Assembly (NCBI GenBank): GCA_964016885.1
Contig: OZ024740.1
Span: 169,446,001-169,510,000, forward strand
DNA from: Eledone cirrhosa
Taxonomy: Eukaryota
Length of the DNA: 64,000 nucleotides
Reading direction: 5' to 3'
The notes under the pieces were generated by a model. The model worked only from the letters and a program-made list of their open reading frames with translations. It was not told where the DNA came from and ran no database searches. Both the position numbers and the translations under genes were made by a program. Positions 11,172 to 63,409 of the stretch are shown piece by piece. Positions within the stretch are counted from its first letter, which is position 1; each line of letters opens with the position of its first letter.

Positions 11172-11236
11172 TAGCTGTCTGATGAGGTCATAACAGTTGC
11201 ATAACGGTTATCCCCGAAACATATATGTAACAGCTA
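11172..11236 (+). ncRNA. Type I minimal hammerhead ribozyme (PLE pseudo-LTR type)
   Basis: Stem I tagctgt/acagcta, core CTGATGA, stem II with ataac/gttat, GAAA, palindromic stem III c-atatat-g, cleavage triplet GTA. Confidence 0.8.
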
Positions 11237-26669: not shown

Positions 26670-29600
26670 TTTTAATTTCTATGTTGTCTATATTATCATA
26701 ATGTCCTTGTCTGGCATGTTCGTATAGTGCTGAGACCTGTTTGTCCTTTTAGTTCCCTCCAGTGTTGGTCTATTCTTTCTCCTATGCTTCGAGCTGTCTC
26801 ACCTATGTATGTCGTTGTCATGTTTCTGCAAGTACCCTCTGTACATCTTATGCTATAGACTACATTTCTAGTTTTACAGTTTATCTGGGGGTTCATTTTA
26901 CATATAACACATTTCTTATTAGTGCAGTGGGTTTTCTTAAAGGGGTATGTTTTGCTGATCAGGGATTTCATAGTAGTTCCTGGCTTTTCTACCACTTGAA
27001 TCTTTAAATGTGTCTTTCTTAGGGCCTTTCTACACTGGTTAGCTAATTTTCCCCCAGTGGTAGCATCCACGAACATGACACTCTGGTATCTCTGGTTGTC
27101 GTACCATGAGGTGGCTTTCCCTATCTTATGTTTAGTCCTATCTAAGCTATTCCATTATGTGCTCCTGTATAATGGGTAAATTCCTTTCATGTCTATTTCT
27201 ATGACGGTTTCATACTTCTCCGTGGCCCCTTTGTATACTCTGATTATGTCTCTTTGGTTGTAGCCAGAGAACTGCATACGGTTGATGAAGTGTTGGATGT
27301 GTTTTTCCATTTCGGTTGGGTCGCATGTGCGGGACACATTCTTCACCATTCGTACCAGGTCTGCGATCAGAATATTAAACTTAGCACTACTGGACATTGC
27401 TGAGGTTTTGAGTATCAGGTATTTGGAGGCCATGGGTTTAGCATAGTGTGAGTGGAGAATTTGGGACCTCTCGTCAATAGTGCCAATCCAAAGTTCTGTG
27501 TCTAATACTGGTAGTCTATTGTTAGGGTGTTTGGAAGGGTAGTCAACAGTTACAGTTATACTCTGGTGTATGGAGTTAGCTATCTGCTGGATACTTTCCA
27601 TTGTGCTGCTAAACACAGAGTTACAGATTTTGGCCAAGGTGTTGGCAAAGAGGGTGGCGCTCGTCGTCGAGAGCCTGGTGGGAGAAGCGCAGACATGAGC
27701 AATCCCGACCAGGTTCATACACGACAACCTCCACCTCATGCGACACATCATAGAGAGGGTAGCGTGTAAACTCGGCTCCGGTGGGGTCCTGATCAACTTG
27801 GATCAGTCTAAGGCTTTCGATAGGGTTGACCATCGTTACCTGGATGCGGTGCTTGGGGCGGCAACCTTCGGACCCGTGTTCAGGGGCTGGATTGCTGCAA
27901 TGCACAACAGCAACATCTGCTCAAGGGTCAAAGCGAACGGCTACGTCTCGGAGCCGTTCTATATCACGCGATCCATTCGACAACGATGCACTCTCTCCTC
28001 CCTTCTGTACGTACTGACTCTCGAGCCACTACTGCGGAAGTTGAAGCTATTGCAGGGCATCCATCTGGAACCGGGACTGCGAAAAGCGGCGTGGGCCTAC
28101 GCCGATGACGTGACAGTAATGGTGTCGAGCACCTCGCAAATCGAGGAAGTCGGCACCTTACTGAAGGAATACGAAAGGTTCACAGGAGCGAAGCTGAACC
28201 GGGACAAGTCCATCGGTTTGCAACTCGGGTTGTGGAGAGGCAAACCGATGCCTTCCGATGGCGTCATCGGACGCTGGACGGAAGGACCGGTAAAGCTACT
28301 CGGGGTCTGGTTTGGTACGGACCTCCAGGTGGAGAAGAACTGGAACGAGGTGACGGCCAAGGCGTTTGCACTCACCCAGAAGTGGGCCGAGTGCAAACTA
28401 TCCTTGAAAGGTCGAGCGGAGATGGCGAACACTTTTATAGCGTCCGCCATCTACTACCACTTGACCGTCGTGCCTTGTCCAGCCAAAACGCTCACCAAGA
28501 TGAAGCGCGCGCTCTTCCAATTCCTTTGGAGGAGGCGGTCCCCTTTGGGGAGAAGATCCATCTGCTGCCAAAACCCTTCCAACGGAGAGCTGGGGATGCC
28601 GTGGCTGACGATACGCAAACGCGCGCTCAGGATGCGGCATCTCTACGTATTCCTCACCGGACAACCGGTGTGGGCCCCGTTCGTGAGGCGAGCCTTCCCA
28701 CGACTCGTCTCGCTGACCGAGCTGCAGTCCTGAGTCAAGCAAAGACCGAGGAAAATGGGCGACTGGCACATCGAATGTGCTCAGGCGCTCACAGCCCTCT
28801 GGCAGGCGGACCTGGCGATCAGTGGAGACTCCACTTCGTCATTCTATAGAGAGTTGATCCACATCAAGTGCGACGACGCACTCGGTGAAACTCTAGGCGT
28901 AGAGGAAGAGGAACTGTCCAGTCTGTTCGGTAGGATCTTCCGCCCGGGACCGATGGACAACTTCCAAAAGTCCCTGGCCTGGCAGTGCTACCGAGGAGCC
29001 CTACCAGTTCGAGACAAGCTCTACAGACATGGGCGCTCGGGCAGGGAGCCTTCGAAAAAGATCTGTCCGAGATGCGTGCGAGACGAAGAACCCGTCGCGC
29101 AAACATTCATGCACTGCCCGGGCGTTACCGACCTGTGGGGCTATGTAGAACGACTATTGTCGCGGGTGGGACCAATCCGGTTGACCACCGAGTCCATTGT
29201 CATGATCAAACAGCCACCCTCCTTCAAAAACGAAGGAAAGGCGGTTTTCCTTTGTGTGATAGCTATGGTGGACAAGGTTGAAAGGGCTGAGGTCAGACAC
29301 CTATCTCTCCGGCCAACAACTGATTCTTTTTTTCAAATACCACTTTAGAAGAAGAATCAGGATGGAGAGACAGGTGCTGTACTCCAGCAAGTTTTATGAA
29401 ATGTGGGTGAAAGTGGCGAGAATGGCCCGAGTGAATGGGCCTTATCTCTATATCAGCCTGTAGGTTGAGGAAAAAGAGGATGAGAGGAAATGGGTACAAA
29501 CACTTCGTACTCCTAGAGATGAGGGTTGCACATTTTTTCGGGGGTATGTGTTACCCATATGTAATGTCTCCCCCTATTGGGGAAAATCGATTAACTTTTA

Positions 29601-33693: not shown

Positions 33694-33932
<239 letters not shown>

Positions 33933-34139
33933 TTGATCAGAGACGAACACTGTATTTAAGGCCGAGTGACGCAACTTCGAGTGATTAGCGTCCTTTAGAC
34001 TCACCTGATCAATGAAACAATTGTTAATACTATAAATAAAACCCTTTTTGTACAGCCGACTATGTCGAGTGCTCTGAATCAGTTATTATAAATTTTATTT
34101 GTTGAATTACCAACAAATTGAAGATCCCTTCTGCTTATA

Positions 34140-34536: not shown

Positions 34537-34588
<52 letters not shown>

Positions 34589-34690
34589 CAGAAGGGATCT
34601 TCAATTTGTTGGTAATTCAACAAATAAAAATGTTTATAACTGATTCAGAGCACTCGACATAGTCGGCTGTACAAAAATGATTTTATTTAT

Positions 34691-34803
34691 AGTATTAACA
34701 ATTGTTTCATCGATCCGGTGAGTCTAAAGGAGGCTAATCACTCGAAGTTGCGTCACTCGACCTTAAATACAGTGTTCGTCTCTGATCAAATCATCGGAAT
34801 ACT
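34691..34803 (-). ncRNA. Hammerhead-like motif with a greatly extended stem II (other copies 35785-35897 + and truncated 33931-34031 +)
   Basis: agtatt CCGATGA tttgatcag...c(t/g)gatc(a/g)at GAAA c-aatt-g TT aatact. Confidence 0.6.
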
Positions 34804-35999: not shown

Positions 36000-38335
36000 A
36001 ATGCAGATATGGATATAGAATATAAATACAAATGCAAAAGATATTGTTGACAATTAATCTTTTACCTTAAATTTATTTGAATATTCTTAATTTTCGAGAT
36101 AATATCTCTTCTTCGGAGGGAAGTAAAGGGGTTAATCCATTGTTCTAATTAGCTTGCCAAGTCATGCTGACAGGAAATGGTATAGAAATTCCTTTCTATT
36201 TCTAATGTCAAAGAGTGAAGTTTAGGTGGATAAAGAGTTGTCTCCCTTTAATAAGGGGTTTGGACATGTATGTTTAAGTGTGTGTGGGAGAATACGTGAA
36301 GGTGTAAGCATGCGTGTGTGTGTGCGTGTGTGTATGTGTGAGTGTGAGAGGATTTGTTTATATGTAAATGTGGGGACTAGATGCTCTATCATGTTAAAAC
36401 TGGTCTTTGTGTGTGTATGTGTGTGTGTGAGAGAGAATAAGTGGAGGTGTAAGCGTGTGTGTGTGCGTGTGCGTGTGTGTGTGAGAGAGAGGGTACGTGG
36501 AGGTGTAAGTGTGGGGCTAGGTGCTCTATCATGTTAAATATTGGGTGTTGAGTTCTAGTCTGTTATTGATTGGCGGTTGCGTTTTGGTTATAATCAGTGC
36601 TTCTTTAATTCTGAGATTGCCGAGGTTTCTTTCCTTAGTTTCTATCCTAACTATTATGTTTTTGTCGGTGTTTTTGCATTTCACTAGGTGTTTCTGAAAT
36701 GAGGAAGCGTTAGTATTGAGGTGTTCATTTATTCTTATGTGAAGTGGTCTGGTGGTGCTGCCTATGTAGAAATTTCTGCATTTGTCGCACTCTAATCTGT
36801 ATACAACGTAAGCCTGGTGGCATAAGTCTATGTCGTTGATGGGGCAGTTGGCTAGCCTGCAGCGGTTGTCATGTCTGGTGGAGTGTCTTTTGGTTAGCTG
36901 TCCGTGTAGAGAAGGTCATTAGTGGGCAAGTTGAATATCTAGTCCCTCTCGTCTGATAGCTCTGCGGATGGCTGTTCTTGTTTCTTCACTGAAGTGTGGG
37001 AGCTTCAGGAAGCAGGTGTTAGTGCCTCGGGTGTGGTGTCCTCTGTTATTTCTGGCACGGTTCGCGGTGGACGTCGGGTATCCGTTCAGTTTATGTACTT
37101 CCAGGAAATGTGTGGTGTGTGTGTCTCGGTCTCTTGCGTCGGTGCATTTGTTCCGGATATGTGTTAGTTCGTTCCTTATGTATTCGAACTTAGCGCTGGC
37201 TGGGAGGGCCGATCTGAAATGTACGAACAGATCCCTGCTGGCGGCTTTTTTTTATAGAAGCAGATGTGGATGTCGCCTTCCTCTGTTACCCTGAGTTGGA
37301 AGTCCTATAGGGATAGGGATCCGCGGTCATCGGGGTTTCCATGCTGAACTTTATACTGGCCTCCATGCTGGAGAATGTCGTGTATATTTTATCCACTTCT
37401 TCATGGGATGATGGAAGGATAAGTATGTCATCTACATATCGGGTGAAGAAGGTATGGGAATGGCAGGTGTTGAGGGCTCGGCATTGTAGCTGCTTCATAT
37501 AATAATGGCCAGCAGGCCCGATAGGCTGGATCCCATGGGTAATCCTGTTGTCTGTCTGTATGTGTGGTGGTGGAAGGTGAAGTACGTGTTGTCCACTGTG
37601 AAGGACAAAAGCTGGTGTAAGTCCGTCGGATGGACGCCGTAGCAGTGGATGTCCTCTGCGACCACGCAGTCCGTCAATAAATCGACAGCTGGATGAGCGG
37701 GGACTATAGTGTAGAGGGAGACAACGTTGAGGCTAACGGCGTATCTATTTAGTTTAAGTTGTTCTGGCTGGAGTTGGTGTACTCCACGTATGACCTCGTC
37801 GGAGCTACTGACATGCCCGGGAAAGGTGGAGAGTAGAGGCTTGAGGACCTGGGAGAGGAGCCAGGAGATTTTGTATAGGGGTCCTTCTATGCTAGAGACG
37901 ATGGGTCTTATTTGTGTCTTACTACTATTCTTGTGGGTCTTGATGAGGTGATAGAAAGTGGGCAGTCTGCTATTTCTAGTGGTGTAATTGAACTTGAATT
38001 AATTTGGGAGTTGTCTTCTACTACAGATGTCGAACCAAATGGAGTTGGCCTGTGTTTCGACCTGGGCTGCAGTTATGTCCGGGATCTCTGTATACAGGTC
38101 GTTGTCGCTTAAGTGTTCAAAAGCTAGGTTGTTGTATGTGGCTTGAGAGATGACACAAAACTCTTTACCGTTGTCGGATGGTAAGTATATGAGTTCCCTA
38201 TTCCGCAGGTTCTTCAGGGCGAGTTGTTGCGTCCTGGAGAGGTTTGGGGCTATCTTCTGTTTCTGTAAGATGGTAAATACGGAATGTTTAAGCCTCCAGA
38301 GTTTTTCTTCCAGCTCGCGATTGGCAGGCGGTGGA
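36000..38335 (-). mobile_element. Penelope-like element (RT + GIY-YIG), 5'-truncated, frameshifted
   Basis: RPIVSS, LNVVSLYTIVP, QTTGLPMGSSLSG, RYVDDIL; endonuclease CRLANCP..C..YVVYRLECDKC..FYIGSTTR.LH.RI.EH. Confidence 0.88.
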
Positions 38336-38431
38336 CCCCCCCCCCCCCCACATATATATATATAGAGAGAAAGAAGTGGTTAGACAACAGTTAGTTCACC
38401 ATACAGTTGTTCCGTATAACCATGTCCATTA

Positions 38432-40139: not shown

Positions 40140-40793
40140 TAGAAAATAGAAGCTTTTACCGTATTTTCTGACTAAAGAAATTTTAGCCTGATAGTGGGGT
40201 TTAGAACCCTTAGAGAAATGGAAAAAGATGAGTATTGACGTACATGGGAGTCGAACCCACATCTTTGGTTATCCAGACCACTGTGCTACCGTTACACCAA
40301 CACATCCCCCATCCCCTTCCATTCAAATTAGAAGTTACATTCTTAGCAAGTATGATGACAAGTAAGTATGTTTTGAAACAGTGAGCAAGTTTGAAAATAG
40401 AAAATAGAAGCTTTCACGCTATTTTTTGACTAAAGAAATTTTAGCCTGATTTAGGAGATGGGTGATGTGTTGGTGTAATGGTAACACAGTGGTCTGGATA
40501 ACCAAATATGTGGGTTCGACTCCCATATACGTCAATACTCATCTTTTTCCATTTCCCTGAAGGTTCTAAACCCCACTATCAGACTAACATTTCTTTTAGT
40601 CAAAAAATACCGTGAAAGCTTCTATTTTCTAATTTCAAACTTGCTCTCTGTTTCAAAACATACTTACTTGTCATCATACTTGCTAAGAATGTAGCTTCTA
40701 ATTTGAATGAAAGGAGATGGGTGATGTGTTGGTGTAATGGTAGCACAGTGGTCTGTATAACCAAAGATGTGGGTTCGACTCCCATGTAGGTCA
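40140..40793. repeat. 259-bp tRNA-containing unit in inverted-tandem arrangement
   Basis: 40140-40450 is in opposite orientation to 40453-40793; tRNA-like 71-mers at 40236-40306 (-), 40464-40534 (+) and 40723-40793 (+). Confidence 0.85.
40464..40534 (+). tRNA. tRNA-like sequence (pseudo-tRNA or element head), anticodon GGA with short variable arm
   Basis: Acceptor gatgtgt/atacgtc-a, D stem gtgt/acac, anticodon stem tggt/acca, T arm gtggg-ttcgact-cccat; D-arm resembles tRNA-Gln. Confidence 0.55.
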
Positions 40794-48199: not shown

Positions 48200-48205
<6 letters not shown>

Positions 48206-51200
48206 AAATAAAATAAATAAGTCAAATGTTTAAAATTTGGCTTCGTTTATTACTGCTATATATATTTCGGTGACAGCTATCTTTGGCTGTGACCTCTTCA
48301 GGCAGTCCGAATTAGTGTGGTAGAGACGAGTACACATGTTGTTGAGGTGTATAACTTTGTCAATACTCTGATATGCCCAGTTCCTGGTTGGGTTATTATT
48401 TCACCGAGGAACTGGAATCATATGAATTTAAACAAACGAATTTCAGCGTCAAAGGGCCTCTTCTCCTCTCATTGGTCAATTGTTAGAACATTCCTCAGTC
48501 AAAAGTCTATAGAAATTCGTTCTGAGGCAAGCCAATCTGTAGTTGTTGTTTTTGTTATTGTTAGGTATATCTGACCCCTATTCAAATGTTGGTAGTAGTG
48601 TTGTTGTTGGAGTCAGCTAAAAAAAGGTGATAAAGTGGTAGAAGGATTAAGATGGTAAAGGAACAAAATAAAATAGAGTAATCGAATAAAATGTGTGTGT
48701 GTTATACCCATCTCAATGTTATAAAGATTTGTAAGGTCAAACTTCCCATTGGTCAGTTTTGAGAGCATTCCTCAATCCAAAGTCTATAGAAATTCTTTCT
48801 GGGGTGAGGCTCCCTGTAGTGTTTGTGTTTGCTATTGTTAAGTACATCTGACCTCTATCCTTATTTTGGTAGTGTTGTTGGTGTTGTGGTCAGCTTGTGT
48901 CTTGCTGCTGCTGACAATTTAGAAGTATCTGTGTGTGTGTTTCTTCATCCCTCCTGCCACCATCTCCTGTGGTGGTGGTGGTGGTGGTAGGGTGGGTGGG
49001 GGTGGGGGTCTGTCGTGTATATGAAGAAATAGAAGGCAATAAAATGAAGAAAACAGAAAACAGAAAATAAATAATAAATAGAGAATAAAGGAAAAATTAA
49101 TGAAAAAGTAATGAAAAAGTAATGAAAAATGAATATGGAAATGAAAAATGAAGATGAAAAGTGAAAAATAAAAATGAAGATTCAAATAAAATAAGATAAA
49201 ATGTATGTGTGCTATAACCAATCTCAAGGTCAGAAATATGTTGGATAGAGAGGTAGGAGGAACAAGATGGTAAAAGAATAAAACGAAATAGGATAATCAA
49301 ATAAAATGTGTGTTATAACCAATCTCAACTTAAATATAAATATAAGGTGATAAAGTGAAGAAAACAGAAAACAAATAACAAAAGAATGAGAAATCAAAAA
49401 TGAAAAATCAAAAATCAAGTAAATTAAAATGTTTGTGTGTTATAAAGATGTTGGCCAAATTATAAAGGCTGTGTCAGAAGCAATCTCTCTGCTATCATGG
49501 TGTCTTTCTCAGCCTGGGTTGGTCCCTATGGCTTGAGGGGAATCCCAACCTATGGTGTTGTTACTGCCCATATAGCTTGAGGGAGGTCTGGCCGAGAGGT
49601 GTCTACATGTGCTGGAGAAGTCCCTATAGCTTGAGGAGAGTTCACATCTTATTGTGTTGCTACTGTCCATATATCTTGAGGAAGGTCCCAGCCCTGAGGT
49701 GTCTGCATGTCCCGAAGAAGTCGGTTCTGAGATTTATCAGGCCGCTTCCACCTCTTAGTATCTCGAGGGTCTCGTTCAGACATAGTTTGCATATACCAGA
49801 TCCCCCTTTATCGGGTGGTACTTTCCTGATTATGGACCAGGCCAGAGAGTACGGTGCCTGTCCAGCTTAAGCTTCCAGATCAGGTCGGAGAGAGCCGTAC
49901 TTTTCCTTTTGGCCTCCTTATTGAAGGAATGGCGATGGTTATACCAGCGATCTTTAAAGCTCGTTGATGTGACTCCGATGTAGAGGTGTTCGGAGTTGGA
50001 GGTTTTAACCTTACAACCGTATACTAGGTTCTTCTTAAGGCATTCATTTCCAAGGGGGCATGATTCGGAGTTTCTGCAGTTGCAGAGGGTGGTCGACCTT
50101 TACGTGCCTAGATTGGGGTTCCCGTTAGATGTTACATGGTGGTTTTCCCCCAGGCACGGTGAGGTGGGGGTCCCAGGGTCTGTTTGGGTTTCTTGGGTGG
50201 GTACTGGGTCCCCCTTCCCTCCTTTCAGATTGTTCTGCTGAGTGCTTGTATTTCCATCTTCTGGTTGTGTGTGGTTTTTAAGCCTACTCCTGTTGATGCT
50301 AGCTATGTGTTGGGTCAGCTCAGGTGGAATACGAGAGCTTCACAGTGTGTCTGTTGAAGATCTTGTGGTATCTATGGTCCCTCGGGAATCATTTATCAAG
50401 TGCTCCAAAGAATGAACGAGCCAAGCTGTTCTTTAGAGCCGCTGAGTAGGGTGGGTTGTACCACGTGATTTTTCTGTGTCTCCTCCTATATGTGTGGGTC
50501 GGGGGCGTCATGAGTTGTTGGAGATTTGTTGCGTTGCTGGTGGTTCCCGCATTGTTGCTTCCCCTTTGGGCGCTATGCGTTTTGCTATCTTCACGGCCCG
50601 AATCTGTGGGGTGGTCGTTGCCTGCGCTTGGAGATCTACCGTGAGGTGTTCCCCTGTTCCCCCCACGTGTCATGAGGTTGGTGTCGTCGGGCCTAGGGCG
50701 GTTAGCTTCACCCCTGAGACTGCTACTCATATTGGGTTTCATCTCATGGTTAAGCGTACTCGTCACCAACGCCCGTGTGCTGGTGTCGGGCTCATGGTGC
50801 CTATTTGTTTCTGTTCTGCCTGTATTGTTAGGGTTGCCCCTCCCCGGACAACGCGAGTGTGGGTGTCCGTTGGGCCATCCCCAACCCAGCGTTTCGGACA
50901 ATATGTTATATTTTAGCCATGTGCCGCCTTATTTAGAGCTGCGTTGTAATATTGCGCGTTGTTATCGAATATTTCCTTTCTTGCGGACAGGTTGGAGATC
51001 CTGTCCGAGACACTCTTCACAACAGCCTTGGTTATGGATCTAGGGTGGTTTGACTTGGCGTTAACATACACGAGTATCTCGTTTGGCTTGTGGTAGGGGT
51101 AGTATTGTTCGGTGTTCAGGTTTAGGGTGGTGTCTAGGAAGTTAAATACCTTTCTATTTGGGTCAAGTTCTATGCTGAGCCTCTGGTTCTTAAAGAAATG

Positions 51201-53320
51201 GCGAATACGCCTCCTCATTCCCTCCAACATATTGGTGCTTTGGTCATATATTTGAAGAGAGCACCGTCACGATATAATCCGCCGCCCAGTCTGGCGATTT
51301 CATCTTTTATCTGCTTCAGCAGGAAGAGGCCAACAAGGTCCGTTACCTGTGCTCAGTCGCTGGAGCCCATCGTGATGTCAAAGTTATTTGGCCAATCACT
51401 TCTGGTCCAAAGGTCTCCATCGAAACGAATTAAGGTCTTTCTTGCGGCGTGGATGATGCTCACCTCCTCTCGGGTTAGGTCCGTATTGGACATCGCTAAA
51501 AATAGGGCCTTATTGAGTACTATGGGTGAGATTGAGGAGTAGTAGCCTGCGATATCCAGTTGTATAAAGCTGGTCTTACTTTTCTCATGTTGTATCTTAA
51601 ACCATTCTATTACCTCTCCCGTGCATGACCATTGCTGTAATCTAGTTTTTTTCCGAAGTTTGGGCAAAATCCTATCTAGTATTCTTTTACTGACGATCCC
51701 TAGATCAGATCTGGAGGGGGCTATTAGTCTGACAGGGAGTTTGGCTTGTGATCTTTAAGGGTAATACGCGGCTCCCTTGGTTAGTATGGAACCGTCTTGT
51801 CCTCTATGCCGAGTCCAGATATAATCCTGTAAGCTGTGGCATTGATCTCATCCAGGGTAAATCCAGGTGTTTTTTTGTAGCACTTCCTCAGTTCCCTGTG
51901 AATTAGCTTATTATACAGTTCAGTGTTCATGTTGTAGAGGTTGTTGGTTTCGTCAGCATGGACAAGTTGTCTCTGTAAATACTGTAATCCGGTTTCTCAG
52001 GTGTCTGAGGTACTCCTGACTTCTGGTTGGGTTTGCGGAGAATTTGAGGTTGGATATGATGTTAATCATCTCGTTTTCAAACTCCTCCATTAGTCTGTTG
52101 TGGTGGGGGGAGGGGGGATTCCTCCTTGATCGTTAAGGTACTCCATGTTTTCTTCACTTTATCACCTTATATTTATATTTAAGTTGAGATTGGTTATACC
52201 ACACATTTTATTTGATTATCTTATTTCGTTTTATTCTTTTACCATCTTGTTCCTCCTACCACTCTATCCAACATATTTCTGACCTTGAGATTGGTTATAG
52301 CACCCACACATTTTATCTTATTTTATTTGAATCTTCATTTTTATTTTTCACTTTTCATCTTCATTTTTCATTTTCCATATTCATTTTTCATTACTTTTTC
52401 ATTACTTTTTCATTACTTTTTCTTTACTTTTTCATTACTTTTTCATTACTTTTTCATTAACTTTTCATCTATACTCTATTTATTATTTATTTTCTGTTTT
52501 CTTCATTTTATTGCCTTCTATTTCTTCATATACACGGCAGAAAGCCCCCCCCCCACCACAGGAGATGGTGGCAGGAGGGATGAAGAAACACACACACACA
52601 CAGATACTTCTAAATTGTCAGCAGCAGCAAGATATAAGCTGACCACAACACCAACAACACTACCAAAATAAGGGTAGAGGTCAGATGTACTTAACAATAG
52701 CAAACACAAACACTACAGGGAGCCTCACTTCAGAAAGAATTTCTATAGACTTTGGACTGAGGAATGCTCTCAAAACTGACCAATGGGAAGTTTGACCTTA
52801 CAAATCTTTATAACATTGAGATGGGTATAACACACACGCACACACATTTTATTCGATTATTTTATTTTATTTTGTTCCTTTACCATCTTATTCCTTCTAC
52901 CACTTTATCACCTTTTTTTTTAGCTGACTCCAACAACAACACCACTACCAACATAAGAATAGGGGTCAGATATACCTAACAAGAACAACAACTACAGATT
53001 GACTTGCCTCAGAACGAATTTCTATAGACTTTTGACTGAGGAATGTTCTAACAACTGACCAATGAGAGGAGAAGAGGCCCTTTGACGCTGAAATTCGTTT
53101 GTTTAAATTCATATGATTCCAGTTCCTCAGTGAAATAACAACCCAACTAGGAACTGGGTATATCAGAGTATTGACAAAGTTATACACCTCAACAACATGT
53201 GTACTCGTCTCTACCACACTAATTCGGACTGCCTGAAGAGGTCACAGCCAATATATATATAACAGTAATAAACGAAGCCAAATTTTAAACATTTGACTTA
53301 TATATTTTATTTTATTTTAC
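48200..53320 (-). mobile_element. Penelope-like element, probably Hydra clade, with a ~1.17-kb inverted terminal duplication
   Basis: Broken ORF ~49640-52140: W..T.EVIEWF, FIQLDIAGYYSSI, FDITMGS, GLYRD-G, NFLD, WYNPPYS, CNCRNSESC (CxCx5C), LVY..YIG. Arms 48200-49365 and 52147-53320 are inverted copies. Confidence 0.88.
48252..48306 (-). ncRNA. Type I minimal hammerhead at the PLE 3' end
   Basis: actgc CTGAAGA ggtcacagc-caaagata-gctgtcacc GAAA t-atat-a TA gcagt. The inverted copy at 53228-53266 has lost stem II-3' and GAAA. Confidence 0.82.
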
Positions 53321-54128: not shown

Positions 54129-54205
<77 letters not shown>

Positions 54206-54358
54206 ATAAATGCTCTGAAATAGCGATATATATGTGAGTATAGACATAGAATATTCGAAAATATTCTGTATGTTTATAATAAACATTTTGAAGACCTAAT
54301 CGCTATAGAATAGAATACGTCACGTATTACAATTAGATTCTCGATAAAAGCAAGGGAA

Positions 54359-54401
54359 GTAATCTACGCGTTTCATTCTTGTTAGAATTCATCAGGACTA
54401 C
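54359..54401 (-). ncRNA. Minimal type I hammerhead, minus-arm copies (also 54669, 54979; truncated at 55289-55322)
   Basis: Reverse complement of the 55589-55631 motif. Confidence 0.9.
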
Positions 54402-55588
54402 ATATCCAGTGCTTTTATCGAGAATGACACAGCTAGAGACTTATAGAATACTTAGCTGTGTACTGGAACTGGTTTGAAAGAGCGGTTGCCGGTCCGGCAG
54501 AAATTAGAAATTGGAATAAATGCTCTGAAATAGCGATATATATGTGAGTATAGACATAGAATATTCGAAAATATTCTGTATGTTTATAATAAACATTTTG
54601 AAGACCTAATCGCTATAGAATAGAATACGTCACGTATTACAATTAGATTCTCGATAAAAGCAAGGGAAGTAATCTACGCGTTTCATTCTTGTTAGAATTC
54701 ATCAGGACTACATATCCAGTGCTTTTATCGAGAATGACACAGCTAGAGACTTATAGAATACTTAGCTGTGTACTGGAACTGGTTTGAAAGAGCGGTTGCC
54801 GGTCCGGCAGAAATTAGAAATTGGAATAAATGCTCTGAAATAGCGATATATATGTGAGTATAGACATAGAATATTCGAAAATATTCTGTATGTTTATAAT
54901 AAACATTTTGAAGACCTAATCGCTATAGAATAGAATACGTCACGTATTACAATTAGATTCTCGATAAAAGCAAGGGAAGTAATCTACGCGTTTCATTCTT
55001 GTTAGAATTCATCAGGACTACATATCCAGTGCTTTTATCGAGAATGACACAGCTAGAGACTTATAGAATACTTAGCTGTGTACTGGAACTGGTTTGAAAG
55101 AGCGGTTGCCGGTCCGGCAGAAATTAGAAATTGGAATAAATGCTCTGAAATAGCGATATATATGTGAGTATAGACATAGAATATTCGAAAATATTCTGTA
55201 TGTTTATAATAAACATTTTGAAGACCTAATCGCTATAGAATAGAATACGTCACGTATTACAATTAGATTCTCGATAAAAGCAAGGGAAGTAATCTACGCG
55301 TTTCATTCTTGTTAGAATTCATTCCCTTGCTTTTATCGAGAATCTAATTGTAATACGTGACGTATTCTATTCTATAGCGATTAGGTCTTCAAAATGTTTA
55401 TTATAAACATACAGAATATTTTCGAATATTCTATGTCTATACTCACATATATATCGCTATTTCAGAGCATTTATTCCAATTTCTAATTTCTGCCGGACCG
55501 GCAACCGCTCTTTCAAACCAGTTCCAGTACACAGCTAAGTATTCTATAAGTCTCTAGCTGTGTCATTCTCGATAAAAGCACTGGATAT

Positions 55589-55631
55589 GTAGTCCTGATG
55601 AATTCTAACAAGAATGAAACGCGTAGATTAC
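55589..55631 (+). ncRNA. Minimal type I hammerhead, plus-arm copies (55589, 55899, 56209, 56519, 56829, 57139, 57449, 57759)
   Basis: gtagtc CTGATGA attc-taacaa-gaat GAAA c-gc-g TA gattac. Stem I is extended by a perfect 16-bp helix attctcgataaaagca/tgcttttatcgagaat beyond an internal loop. Confidence 0.92.
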
Positions 55632-57945
55632 TTCCCTTGCTTTTATCGAGAATCTAATTGTAATACGTGACGTATTCTATTCTATAGCGATTAGGTCTTC
55701 AAAATGTTTATTATAAACATACAGAATATTTTCGAATATTCTATGTCTATACTCACATATATATCGCTATTTCAGAGCATTTATTCCAATTTCTAATTTC
55801 TGCCGGACCGGCAACCGCTCTTTCAAACCAGTTCCAGTACACAGCTAAGTATTCTATAAGTCTCTAGCTGTGTCATTCTCGATAAAAGCACTGGATATGT
55901 AGTCCTGATGAATTCTAACAAGAATGAAACGCGTAGATTACTTCCCTTGCTTTTATCGAGAATCTAATTGTAATACGTGACGTATTCTATTCTATAGCGA
56001 TTAGGTCTTCAAAATGTTTATTATAAACATACAGAATATTTTCGAATATTCTATGTCTATACTCACATATATATCGCTATTTCAGAGCATTTATTCCAAT
56101 TTCTAATTTCTGCCGGACCGGCAACCGCTCTTTCAAACCAGTTCCAGTACACAGCTAAGTATTCTATAAGTCTCTAGCTGTGTCATTCTCGATAAAAGCA
56201 CTGGATATGTAGTCCTGATGAATTCTAACAAGAATGAAACGCGTAGATTACTTCCCTTGCTTTTATCGAGAATCTAATTGTAATACGTGACGTATTCTAT
56301 TCTATAGCGATTAGGTCTTCAAAATGTTTATTATAAACATACAGAATATTTTCGAATATTCTATGTCTATACTCACATATATATCGCTATTTCAGAGCAT
56401 TTATTCCAATTTCTAATTTCTGCCGGACCGGCAACCGCTCTTTCAAACCAGTTCCAGTACACAGCTAAGTATTCTATAAGTCTCTAGCTGTGTCATTCTC
56501 GATAAAAGCACTGGATATGTAGTCCTGATGAATTCTAACAAGAATGAAACGCGTAGATTACTTCCCTTGCTTTTATCGAGAATCTAATTGTAATACGTGA
56601 CGTATTCTATTCTATAGCGATTAGGTCTTCAAAATGTTTATTATAAACATACAGAATATTTTCGAATATTCTATGTCTATACTCACATATATATCGCTAT
56701 TTCAGAGCATTTATTCCAATTTCTAATTTCTGCCGGACCGGCAACCGCTCTTTCAAACCAGTTCCAGTACACAGCTAAGTATTCTATAAGTCTCTAGCTG
56801 TGTCATTCTCGATAAAAGCACTGGATATGTAGTCCTGATGAATTCTAACAAGAATGAAACGCGTAGATTACTTCCCTTGCTTTTATCGAGAATCTAATTG
56901 TAATACGTGACGTATTCTATTCTATAGCGATTAGGTCTTCAAAATGTTTATTATAAACATACAGAATATTTTCGAATATTCTATGTCTATACTCACATAT
57001 ATATCGCTATTTCAGAGCATTTATTCCAATTTCTAATTTCTGCCGGACCGGCAACCGCTCTTTCAAACCAGTTCCAGTACACAGCTAAGTATTCTATAAG
57101 TCTCTAGCTGTGTCATTCTCGATAAAAGCACTGGATATGTAGTCCTGATGAATTCTAACAAGAATGAAACGCGTAGATTACTTCCCTTGCTTTTATCGAG
57201 AATCTAATTGTAATACGTGACGTATTCTATTCTATAGCGATTAGGTCTTCAAAATGTTTATTATAAACATACAGAATATTTTCGAATATTCTATGTCTAT
57301 ACTCACATATATATCGCTATTTCAGAGCATTTATTCCAATTTCTAATTTCTGCCGGACCGGCAACCGCTCTTTCAAACCAGTTCCAGTACACAGCTAAGT
57401 ATTCTATAAGTCTCTAGCTGTGTCATTCTCGATAAAAGCACTGGATATGTAGTCCTGATGAATTCTAACAAGAATGAAACGCGTAGATTACTTCCCTTGC
57501 TTTTATCGAGAATCTAATTGTAATACGTGACGTATTCTATTCTATAGCGATTAGGTCTTCAAAATGTTTATTATAAACATACAGAATATTTTCGAATATT
57601 CTATGTCTATACTCACATATATATCGCTATTTCAGAGCATTTATTCCAATTTCTAATTTCTGCCGGACCGGCAACCGCTCTTTCAAACCAGTTCCAGTAC
57701 ACAGCTAAGTATTCTATAAGTCTCTAGCTGTGTCATTCTCGATAAAAGCACTGGATATGTAGTCCTGATGAATTCTAACAAGAATGAAACGCGTAGATTA
57801 CTTCCCTTGCTTTTATCGAGAATCTAATTGTAATACGTGACGTATTCTATTCTATAGCGATTAGGTCTTCAAAATGTTTATTATAAACATACAGAATATT
57901 TTCGAATATTCTATGTCTATACTCATATATATATATATATATATA

Positions 57946-61580: not shown

Positions 61581-62382
61581 TAATCTATAAAGCTCAGTGT
61601 ATGGACATGCTCCTTCGTTATAGAAATCTGCGATATAGAATTTCTTCAATTGAAATTTACAACTCAGTATTCGAAATAGCTTCGATTGCGTCTTGACGCA
61701 GATAATCTTTTCAATTTCACCCACAATTACGCAAAAAATAGATAAAACTCAATATTTTACGATTTTTCTCTCTCATTTAAACTGCTGAACTCTTTCTACT
61801 ACCATTCAAAATCTATACAACTTCATACTTTCTGCTACTTTCTCTTTCCAAGCCTGATGGTGATACTGTCTGTTCACACCACTCCCTACTGTCTTAAATT
61901 TAGAAAACACATATCCTCTATAAGGTTACTAAACCTGCTAGAAACACAGCTAACTCTCCCCCATAACACACCACTCCCTACTGTCTTAAATTTAGAAAAC
62001 ACATATCCTCTATGAAGTCACTAAACCTGCTAGAAACAACAGCTAACTCTCCCTCATATCACAGCCCTCCCTACTGTCTTAAATTTAGAAAACACACAGA
62101 CAACCATGCAGAACAACTCCATCGCAGCTCTGTTGTTCGGCTGGCATCGTCTACGCGCGTGTTGCGCAAGTACCGTGAAACAATAAATTTCAACACTTTT
62201 TTGCACAGAGATAATATCCATAGGCGAAACTGCAATTGTCACTGCTGGCGCAGCTCATGCTTCCATGTCTGCAATTCATTCACCCAGTGCCTGGCAGACA
62301 AAAAAGTGCTGCCATAAAATGGGTGGTGCAACCTAACTTTGCTAACTTAATGAATCCGAGCAACGCCGGGCTTTAATGCTAG
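61578..62382 (+). mobile_element. Non-autonomous Helitron with ~94-bp internal tandem repeats
   Basis: Hairpin ccgagcaacgccggg then CTAG|t at 62379-62382; repeats 61877-62097. Confidence 0.75.
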
Positions 62383-62744
62383 TATATATATATAATGAAA
62401 TTTCATTTTTTCTATTTATATATATATGTGTATGTGTGTGTGTGTTTTATGGTAGCTAAGATGCTTCCATAGGCGGTATGCCGGTTGAGCACTCTATGCT
62501 CTTGCAGAGCAGAGTATGATAGAACAGAAAACAGAAAATCAGTGGTGCATCTGAACTTAATTTATTGTGTGCTACAATTGTTTCGCCGGCGGACAGCTCG
62601 AGACGTGATCAATGTGTGGATCTGTCTGATTCTGGACCCGCAAGTTCGACGAATACGTCTAATGATTTCCGAGCATATTCTCTCACGTGAGAGAACACAC
62701 AATAAATTAAGTTCAGATGCATCACTGATTTTTCGTTTTCTATG

Positions 62745-62799
<55 letters not shown>

Positions 62800-62970
62800 T
62801 GTATGTATACTATATTTGGCAATATACCGTATTTTTAATTAAAAACATTTAGTTTTAAAGTAGTGACTATATCACTTACTTCTTTTCGGCGAAAGAGGGG
62901 AGAGAAACTGACACTGGAATTCTATAGGAATCCAGCTTCTATAATTTTCGGCGGAAGCAGTGGAGTGCGT

Positions 62971-63012
62971 GGCTCTGATGAACGCCAACCAGCGTGAAAC
63001 AGACTGTTAGCT
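62971..63012 (+). ncRNA. Type I hammerhead of a second retrozyme-like family
   Basis: ggct CTGATGA acgc-caacca-gcgt GAAA cag-a-ctg TT agct; stem I extension ttttcggcggaag/ctttcgccgaaaa. Confidence 0.8.
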
Positions 63013-63409
63013 TCTCTCCCTTCTTTCGCCGAAAAGAAGTAAGTGACAGAGTCACTACTTGAAAACTGATAGCGGATGGTCTTCAAAATGTTTTTAATTA
63101 AACATACGGTATATAGCCAAATATACTATACATACATTCATGTATAAATCGCTATTTCAGAGCACCAATCCTAATATATATATATATATATATATATTTG
63201 TGTGCGTGTGTGTTAGTATGTATTATGTATGTATATATGTATTTATATGTGTGTATATATGTGTACGTATATATGTTTCTATGTATCTGGCTGTTCGGCA
63301 ATCTCTCCGTACATTACAGAGATTGCCAAACTCACACTCGGGCATATTGTAAATGGACTGTTTTAACGACTACGAAATCTCGTGAAAACTACCTAAGACA
63401 TTGTTTATT

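Follow-up and report, generated by a model that had tools for sequence, protein, structure and literature searches.

A two-armed hammerhead retrozyme insertion in Eledone cirrhosa, its sister subfamilies, and a conserved module that is likely a handle for a Penelope-type enzyme

Retrozymes have been shown to occur as RNA circles, and their mobilization by PLEs has been proposed (Cervera and de la Pena 2020, PMC7229834). They have also been linked to pLTRs, and one of nine predicted Xenopus elements was cleaved (Li, Clavereau and Pollet 2026, 10.64898/2026.07.22.740005). On the side of the PLEs, the purified PAc protein (Anolis Poseidon) introduces nicks into both strands of AT-rich DNA and extends them (Frangieh et al. 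2024, PMC11167929). The same study places two internal reverse-transcription starts 3' of the hammerhead, in an AC-rich stem loop, predicts a dimer, and delimits a required region of 172 nt, likewise downstream of the hammerhead, for which the available description maps the starts and gives no structure (PMC11167929). In PLE ribozymes, U3-A8 has been reported to replace C3-G8 as a covariation of the core (Cervera and de la Pena 2014, PMC4209133), and the motifs RWK and DKT are given for Hydra PLEs (Craig et al. 2021, PMC8557442).

The family described here is a retrozyme with the insertion signature of PLEs, each of which is already known; the retrozyme class, its link to PLEs, and the tail are all in print. 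The novelty lies in a covarying, conserved module that keeps two start sites in register over about 35% divergence.

The insertion at 62795-63175

The window, that is, the whole 64,000-nt stretch of the E. cirrhosa assembly that was analyzed (GCA_964016885.1, contig OZ024740.1, positions 169,446,001 to 169,510,000), contains at 62795-63175 a two-armed, head-to-head insertion in (TA)n, which is derived from a hammerhead repeat unit of about 316 nt (subfamily B). A tandem array of subfamily A lies in the same window. The features, with sites 1 and 2 denoting the two recurrent end positions, are as follows.

54200..55322, minus strand: left arm of the subfamily-A array, 3.6 units of 310 nt, ending at site 2
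55322..57925, plus strand: right arm of the subfamily-A array, 8.4 units, ending at site 1
62746..62796, no strand: left (TA)n target tract
62795..62916, minus strand: subfamily-B left arm, with site 1 as its 3' end (last specific base 62797)
62914..62916, no strand: meeting point of the 5' ends of the arms, a 3-nt overlap read from the sequence
62914..63175, plus strand: subfamily-B right arm, 262 nt of the ~316-nt unit, with site 2 as its 3' end (last specific base 63173)
62914..62935, plus strand: hairpin with the loop motif TTCTATAAG, which is invariant in five subfamily majorities and has one change in this copy
62944..63035, plus strand: type I hammerhead with a long extended stem I, core at 62975-62999, near-palindromic stem III at 63000-63006, and predicted cut after 63008 (GUU)
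63069..63164, plus strand: conserved module, with P1 (63070-63074 with 63150-63154), single-stranded GGTCTTC (63078-63084), hairpins P2, P3, and P4, and then TTTCAGAGCA
63139..63139, plus strand: site 1, at the end of the P4 loop, read through by the right arm and used by the left arm; a modal end (43 TA-flanked ends)
63173..63173, plus strand: site 2, 34 nt after site 1; a modal end (62 TA-flanked ends)
63174..63197, no strand: right (TA)n target tract

An earlier note on this DNA had described the insert as flanked by (TA)n and arranged head-to-head, and both the tracts on either side and the inverted arms were borne out. It had also pointed to a hammerhead unlike that of the array, which holds: in the right arm, with the core starting at 62975, stem II is ACGC/GCGT and the loop reads caacca (taacaa in A). 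The internal loop 'tgga', on the other hand, which had been taken for a retained feature, turned out to be a variant of this copy found in 3 of 41 B cores, the purines of which pair in distal stem I; position 62961 is G in 88% of the depth of run X1.

The left arm has its 5' start about 7 nt 5' of the hammerhead cut and is devoid of the hammerhead core, and its module has lost 18 nt, the GGTCTTC motif among them. A covariance model matches it with 46 bits (62787-62852) and the right-arm module with 125 bits, this copy itself being among the building sequences of the model. Both GGTCTTC and TTTCAGAGCA are invariant in the module. The predicted fold of the right arm has a z of -4.5 and that of the whole insert, as a long inverted repeat, a z of -18.6. 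Compared with the subfamily majority, the right arm differs at 8 of 251 positions and the left arm at 8 of 127, with no difference common to both, which marks this as an older, decaying copy. A TSD is not discernible in the (TA)n at this locus, and over the element we found no ORF of at least 150 aa, no LTR layout, and no ORF for RT plus GIY-YIG.

In A as well as in B, the core, the stems, and the cut triplet of a type I hammerhead are present. The core pair 3:8 covaries across subfamilies, with C:G in 28, U:A in 27, and a mismatch in 3 of 58 cores. In Rfam, HH9 matches A with only 23 bits, which is under the cut-off and was seen at relaxed E-values, and does not match B. The 3' arm of stem I has an identity of 0.48 between A and B and of 0.48 in shuffles.

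Several other repeats lie close to the insertion or elsewhere in the window. A separate fold-back of 230 nt (62519-62748; 53-nt inverted arms, 91%, z -13) adjoins the left (TA)n tract and is either MITE-like or another two-armed insertion. Further to the left, a 92-nt tandem (2.4 units) is followed by a hairpin and CTAG before a TA tract (61875-62390), presumably resembling a Helitron end. Three tRNA-like copies, two of them as an inverted pair, are found at 40236-40793 and possibly represent a SINE head.

Subfamilies and their insertion ends

The earlier note had regarded the insert as belonging to a second retrozyme family that shares a 3' module with the 310-nt unit of the array. The shared downstream module stands (78% over 97 nt, BLAST E 1.9e-15); in local alignment, B against the array at 54200-57934 scores 171 versus 54.5+/-6.9 in 300 shuffles (shuffle maximum 79.5). 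The homology, however, covers the whole monomer and not the 3' module alone. All subfamilies are colinear over the unit, and A and B are therefore sister subfamilies and not separate families. Further subfamilies were revealed by gap-length patterns and an additional motif, and 38 near-complete units fell into five clusters of at least two members plus one singleton; the radiation comprises at least five subfamilies. Identity is 65-68% between A and the other subfamilies and 76-89% among the latter, and the unit length ranges from 310 to 322 nt across the family.

A first look at the 3.0-Gb assembly gave 2,451 candidates for B, of which the best 39 besides the window copy are 93-95% identical, while copies of A are 100% identical at no fewer than 20 dispersed loci. 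A 16-nt word of the module occurs 24,491 times versus 3 times for a control. Arrays of A contain many units, with arms of up to 12 near-identical ones, and those of B, C, and D mostly have about two or fewer; the copy at 62795-63175 has less than one unit per arm. In A, the arms begin at scattered inner 5' positions, a single one out of 40 being no more than 5 nt away from the cut.

One A array with a 311-nt unit (L083-L100, G000:C1:1239700-1244500) has a doubly folded inner junction, and all six units examined across both arms contain one additional base immediately behind the predicted cut site. In three runs (X4, X5, and X6, from three coded organisms and three studies, kind unrecorded), one self-closing A-unit contig of 340 nt each was assembled at a depth of 18-34. 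These contigs were placed on 55480-55789 of the window and are uninformative on ends, strand, and splicing; a contig of this kind fits a circular RNA as well as trace or low-coverage tandem DNA of a very high-copy repeat.

For the insertion ends, 164 loci were examined and 163 tabulated; overlapping duplicates, the overlapping slices L031-L060 and L083-L100, the unrelated match L194, and the disrupted copy L161 had been left out of the terminus set beforehand. In all lineages, the modal TA-flanked ends are two positions 34 nt apart, namely sites 1 and 2. Within end-site windows of 26 and 14 nt, which were fixed after inspection of the data, lie 221 of 265 3' ends (45/48 in A, 83/103 in B, 46/58 in C, and 47/56 in D); 20 of the 103 B ends fall outside both sites. 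Three of the seven terminus sets were chosen in a manner that favors site 2. An unbiased B set has 30 of 39 ends in 40 of 316 positions (p 8e-20, with post hoc windows). The termini are thus sharply clustered and not randomly distributed along the monomer. The claim that the arms end at positions homologous to the array ends is correct by position, but the 'ccaa' match on which it drew is out of register: A and B both end 11 nt after CAGAGCA, in 'ccaat' and 'ctaat', respectively.

The two sites are used in a paired manner. Both ends fall in the end-site windows at 64 loci, and 62 of these use one of each site (20 in A, 16 in B, 14 in C, and 12 in D); in the unbiased sets all 34 such loci have one end per site; at 39 more loci, one site is paired with an end elsewhere. 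This one-arm-per-site rule is near-absolute, and we count it, along with the conserved module, as the added value of the analysis. Two arms are present at 19 of 21 A loci, and both outer ends are classed as 3' ends at 103 of the 163 tabulated loci. TA/CA repeats flank 215 of the 265 3' ends. Alternating A/T runs of at least 3 nt number 19 in A and 13 in B, of which only those in the two end zones are commonly used. The PLE-type tail here measures 34 nt and is found at one end only. Of the two preferred priming points proposed in the earlier note, the two sites with their clustered ends are confirmed, but they correspond to the 'tail' described for PLEs and are no new phenomenon (PMC11167929, PMC8557442).

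The conserved module and the PLEs of the genome

The module is the best-kept long part of the unit (A/B identity 79% versus 56% elsewhere). Between A and B, 76 of 96 positions are identical in the module versus 98 of 174 in the remaining regions (p 1.8e-4), along with 15 of 16 in a short downstream helix and 9 of 9 in the TATAA-loop motif. The module segment most often measures 106 nt in each of the subfamilies A, B, and D; for C, copies with longer gaps had been chosen. Conservation is uneven along the unit, unlike the uniform divergence that simple decay of one family would leave.

The predicted fold consists of P1 with the hairpins P2-P4 in a multi-helix junction. Pairing was counted on 21 natural copies, picked by hand from those compared for segment length plus two more, where 97.7% of cells pair, while slid controls for P1-P4 reach at most 59%. 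RNAalifold found P1-P3 unaided and did not predict P4. Four module pairs change on both sides, a number that is not significant in a shuffle control that is blind to relatedness (142/500). Of the lineage-majority changes in stems, seven of eight keep pairing and five are compensatory doubles, compared to 23 of 75 private changes and no doubles among 59 copies of B, C, and D that are free of gaps. The p for this contrast is 0.003 and becomes 0.03 if the two breaks of P4 in subfamily D2 are included. P1 has no covariation at all, and P4 is weak, with a broken pair in A and a break in D2. Judged from these alignments, the covariation in the module is real but based on about five events in four or five related lineages.

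At the Rfam gathering score, no family for the module was found in the window; relaxed E-values gave low-complexity, miRNA-type matches and the weak HH9 match of A. No protein reading frame common to A and B runs across the module, as assessed by eye, and the indels differ. In the literature searched, which lay largely outside subscription journals, no description of the module or of a covarying RT-recognition structure in retrozymes was found.

PLEs are abundant in the genome, with 21,779, 11,538, and 27,516 first-look candidates for three families, which were seeded from ORFs of the window and for which 10, 15, and 12 stretches were compared. One family is Hydra-type and carries the RWK and DKT motifs; the other two we take to be Poseidon-like and Neptune-like. 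The Poseidon-like family has intact frames of about 900 codons and inserts head-to-head in (TA)n, following the one-arm-per-site pattern with sites 43 nt apart at all 8 two-armed loci of 13 (the other five show one end); an intact element of this family is also inserted as 3.1-kb tandems. The Neptune-like family likewise has one arm per site, about 59 nt apart, at 3 of 3 two-armed loci among 12. These tail spacings differ from the 34 nt of the retrozyme. The earlier note had suggested searching the 3' ends of autonomous PLEs for the same module, which in the three intact families was absent: their best matches to the covariance model are at background level, with 24, 23, and 21.5 bits versus 103-125 for the module. 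Moreover, in two PLE families no pLTR similarity above shuffles was found, PLE fragments near the retrozyme loci analyzed show no continuity with the module, and of 79 matches that have an unusual base after the downstream helix the first 30 are all copies of the retrozyme.

The window itself harbors a decayed Hydra-type PLE (48200-52160, minus strand) with a minimal hammerhead at 48301, whose near-intact relatives of about 890 codons occur as head-to-head insertions in (TA)n. Two more decayed PLEs (36000-38400 and 26696-27802, both on the minus strand) belong to families with many identical-scoring, apparently young copies. At another locus (L261, 600-3100), a 476-nt tandem array in (TA)n adjoins a Hydra-type element.

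Other minimal-hammerhead elements were also observed. At 33930-34133 and 34586-34795, a mirror pair of chimeric pieces joins about 70 nt from the end of an abundant element with a minimal hammerhead (3,469 exact 18-mers) to a different repeat, for which there are 2,424 candidates. In the piece at 33930-34133 both ends are fixed, and short module-like motifs occur on the antisense strand. The covariance-model matches at 34059-34133 and 34589-34663 (27 bits) were rejected as module homologs, being the antisense strand of another hammerhead element. At a further locus (L021, 1150-1730), a B insertion has a left arm that gives way, where the module begins, to the 3' end of the abundant minimal-hammerhead element of the mirror pair, which is possibly a template switch within one insertion event. 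More minimal hammerhead cores lie at 11179, 11851, 30143, and 30321 of the window, two of which form an inverted pair.

Mechanism, rival explanations, and comparison with known systems

Taking the observed family structure, termini, one-arm-per-site pairing, uneven conservation, and compensatory pairs together, we favor with fair confidence the reading that the insert is an older copy whose two end points, 34 bases apart, are reverse-transcription starts set by the module when bound by a Penelope-type enzyme. Because the subfamilies keep the folded module along with the same two ends, the module is likely a handle for such an enzyme, and RT recognition is, on sequence evidence, probably its function. 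In the proposed mechanism, tandem copies would be transcribed and cut by their hammerheads, probably as dimers via the palindromic stem III, after which the retrozyme unit may circularize. A PLE protein with RT and GIY-YIG domains, probably a dimer, would bind the P1-P4 junction and the invariant single-stranded motifs and nick both strands of a (TA)n tract. Priming would take place from one nick at site 1, within the P4 loop, and from the other at site 2, 34 nt further along, aided in each case by 2-3 nt of A/T pairing. The two resulting cDNAs would be of variable length, passing the cut site and continuing round the unit, and their far ends would be joined by a 0-3 nt overlap to give the head-to-head arms.

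A more far-reaching version, which we advance only tentatively, sees the P1-P4 junction as an element, supported by covariation, through which a Penelope-class RT, a relative of telomerase, would recognize its RNA; the literature searched contained nothing of this kind. The junction might act as a ruler, in that the RNA held by an RT dimer would feed two starts 34 nt apart, one per nicked strand, and the module of about 100 nt might be portable, licensing any RNA, circles included, for two-armed insertion. With PAc in vitro, both strands use the same starts (PMC11167929), and the strict one-arm-per-site rule is therefore not explained by that study as described.

Among the alternatives, the one that deserves the most room accepts the same enzyme and sites, as well as the module as RT handle, but takes a long uncut tandem transcript in place of a circular monomer as the template. 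In vitro, hammerhead cleavage is unnecessary and unprocessed RNA is the main substrate (PMC11167929), and the intact PLE of this genome is likewise inserted as 3.1-kb tandems; the hammerhead core and stems nevertheless covary across subfamilies, which implies selection for cleavage, arms with as many as 12 near-identical units run past the cut, only 1 of 40 starts being within 5 nt of it, and retrozyme circles have been shown in coral, mussel, and axolotl (PMC7229834). We hold this variant to be possible, though it is doubtful. It is rather unlikely, in our view, that PLE-type insertion is right while the module is kept for another role, such as a PLE-derived retained intron or RNA stability or processing, with the starts set by local features alone. 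B, C, and D do have a donor-like GTAAGT about 30 nt after the cut; the P4 loop contains a branch-like motif, and P1 is followed by TTTCAG, which is invariant and resembles a splice acceptor. Introns also occur in the pLTR/5' UTR of PLEs (PMC8557442). The donor match is, however, missing from A, the youngest subfamily, no donor-to-acceptor deletion was found at loci L001-L260, and across about 35% divergence neither end site has shifted relative to the module. Hairpins of fixed length that covary are, moreover, not usually needed by introns.

Still less probable is that the ends are merely the spots that pair best with (TA)n, that the similarity of the module stems from recent template switching between subfamilies, and that palindrome-correcting mutation produced the covariation of the hairpins. 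In A, no alternating A/T run is longer than the one of 8 nt that follows site 1, chimeric junctions with other elements exist, and the module is AT-rich and hairpin-rich; yet only 2-3 nt of A/T pairing are available at site 2, runs of the same or greater length mostly see little use, and the 62 mixed pairs among 64 cannot come from microhomology. This reading is further opposed by the lineage-specific compensatory changes, which sit inside the module, and by the lack of doubles among the 75 private changes. The last alternative is a MITE-like fold-back element that acts at the DNA level, or else a recombination-amplified satellite. In its favor, the insert forms a long inverted repeat (z -18.6), but the outer ends of the arms are unequal and fixed, their inner ends variable, and their strands polar, and the copies are dispersed with a covarying ribozyme core; the table of ends largely refutes this idea, to which we give hardly any weight.

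A module that is recognized by the enzyme, the reading we prefer, bears on how PLE RTs select RNA and why they have two internal starts. As a non-coding passenger keeps only the parts that the enzyme needs, the radiation of at least five subfamilies can be regarded as a natural mutational scan, which names helices, invariant bases, and spacing, and the one-arm-per-site rule constrains any mechanism.

Like metazoan non-LTR retrozymes, the family is low in GC, occurs as tandem as well as single copies of a non-coding unit within 170-400 nt that contains one type I hammerhead, and has PLEs as its proposed means of mobilization (PMC7229834; 10.64898/2026.07.22.740005). It is unlike the metazoan retrozymes described in these papers, as available, in its two-armed insertion, fixed paired ends, and structured module outside the ribozyme (PMC7229834; 10.64898/2026.07.22.740005), and furthermore in that a TSD is not discernible and no parent pLTR was found for the family here. 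With PAc it shares two internal starts that bound a 'tail' of 30-40 nt, a stem loop rich in AC that lies downstream of a hammerhead, an AT-rich target, and, in the proposed mechanism, the nicking and extension of both strands; PAc differs in being autonomous, with its binding region in the ORF, and its published description, as available, has neither a covariation-supported structure nor a strand-specific use of sites (PMC11167929). The PLE hammerhead variants have the same covariation at 3:8 of the core, palindromic helix III, and dimeric cleavage model, but are mostly minimal and located in pLTRs (PMC4209133), whereas the hammerhead of the family has a long stem I and a stem III that is short but present. 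Finally, the inverted 5'-truncated copy beside the main copy, the 30-40-bp tail that is often at one end only, and the targeting of microsatellites, (TA)n in the case of Hydra, are also known from EN+ PLEs (PMC8557442), in comparison to which the element here is free of an ORF and both of its arms can be long non-coding multimers.
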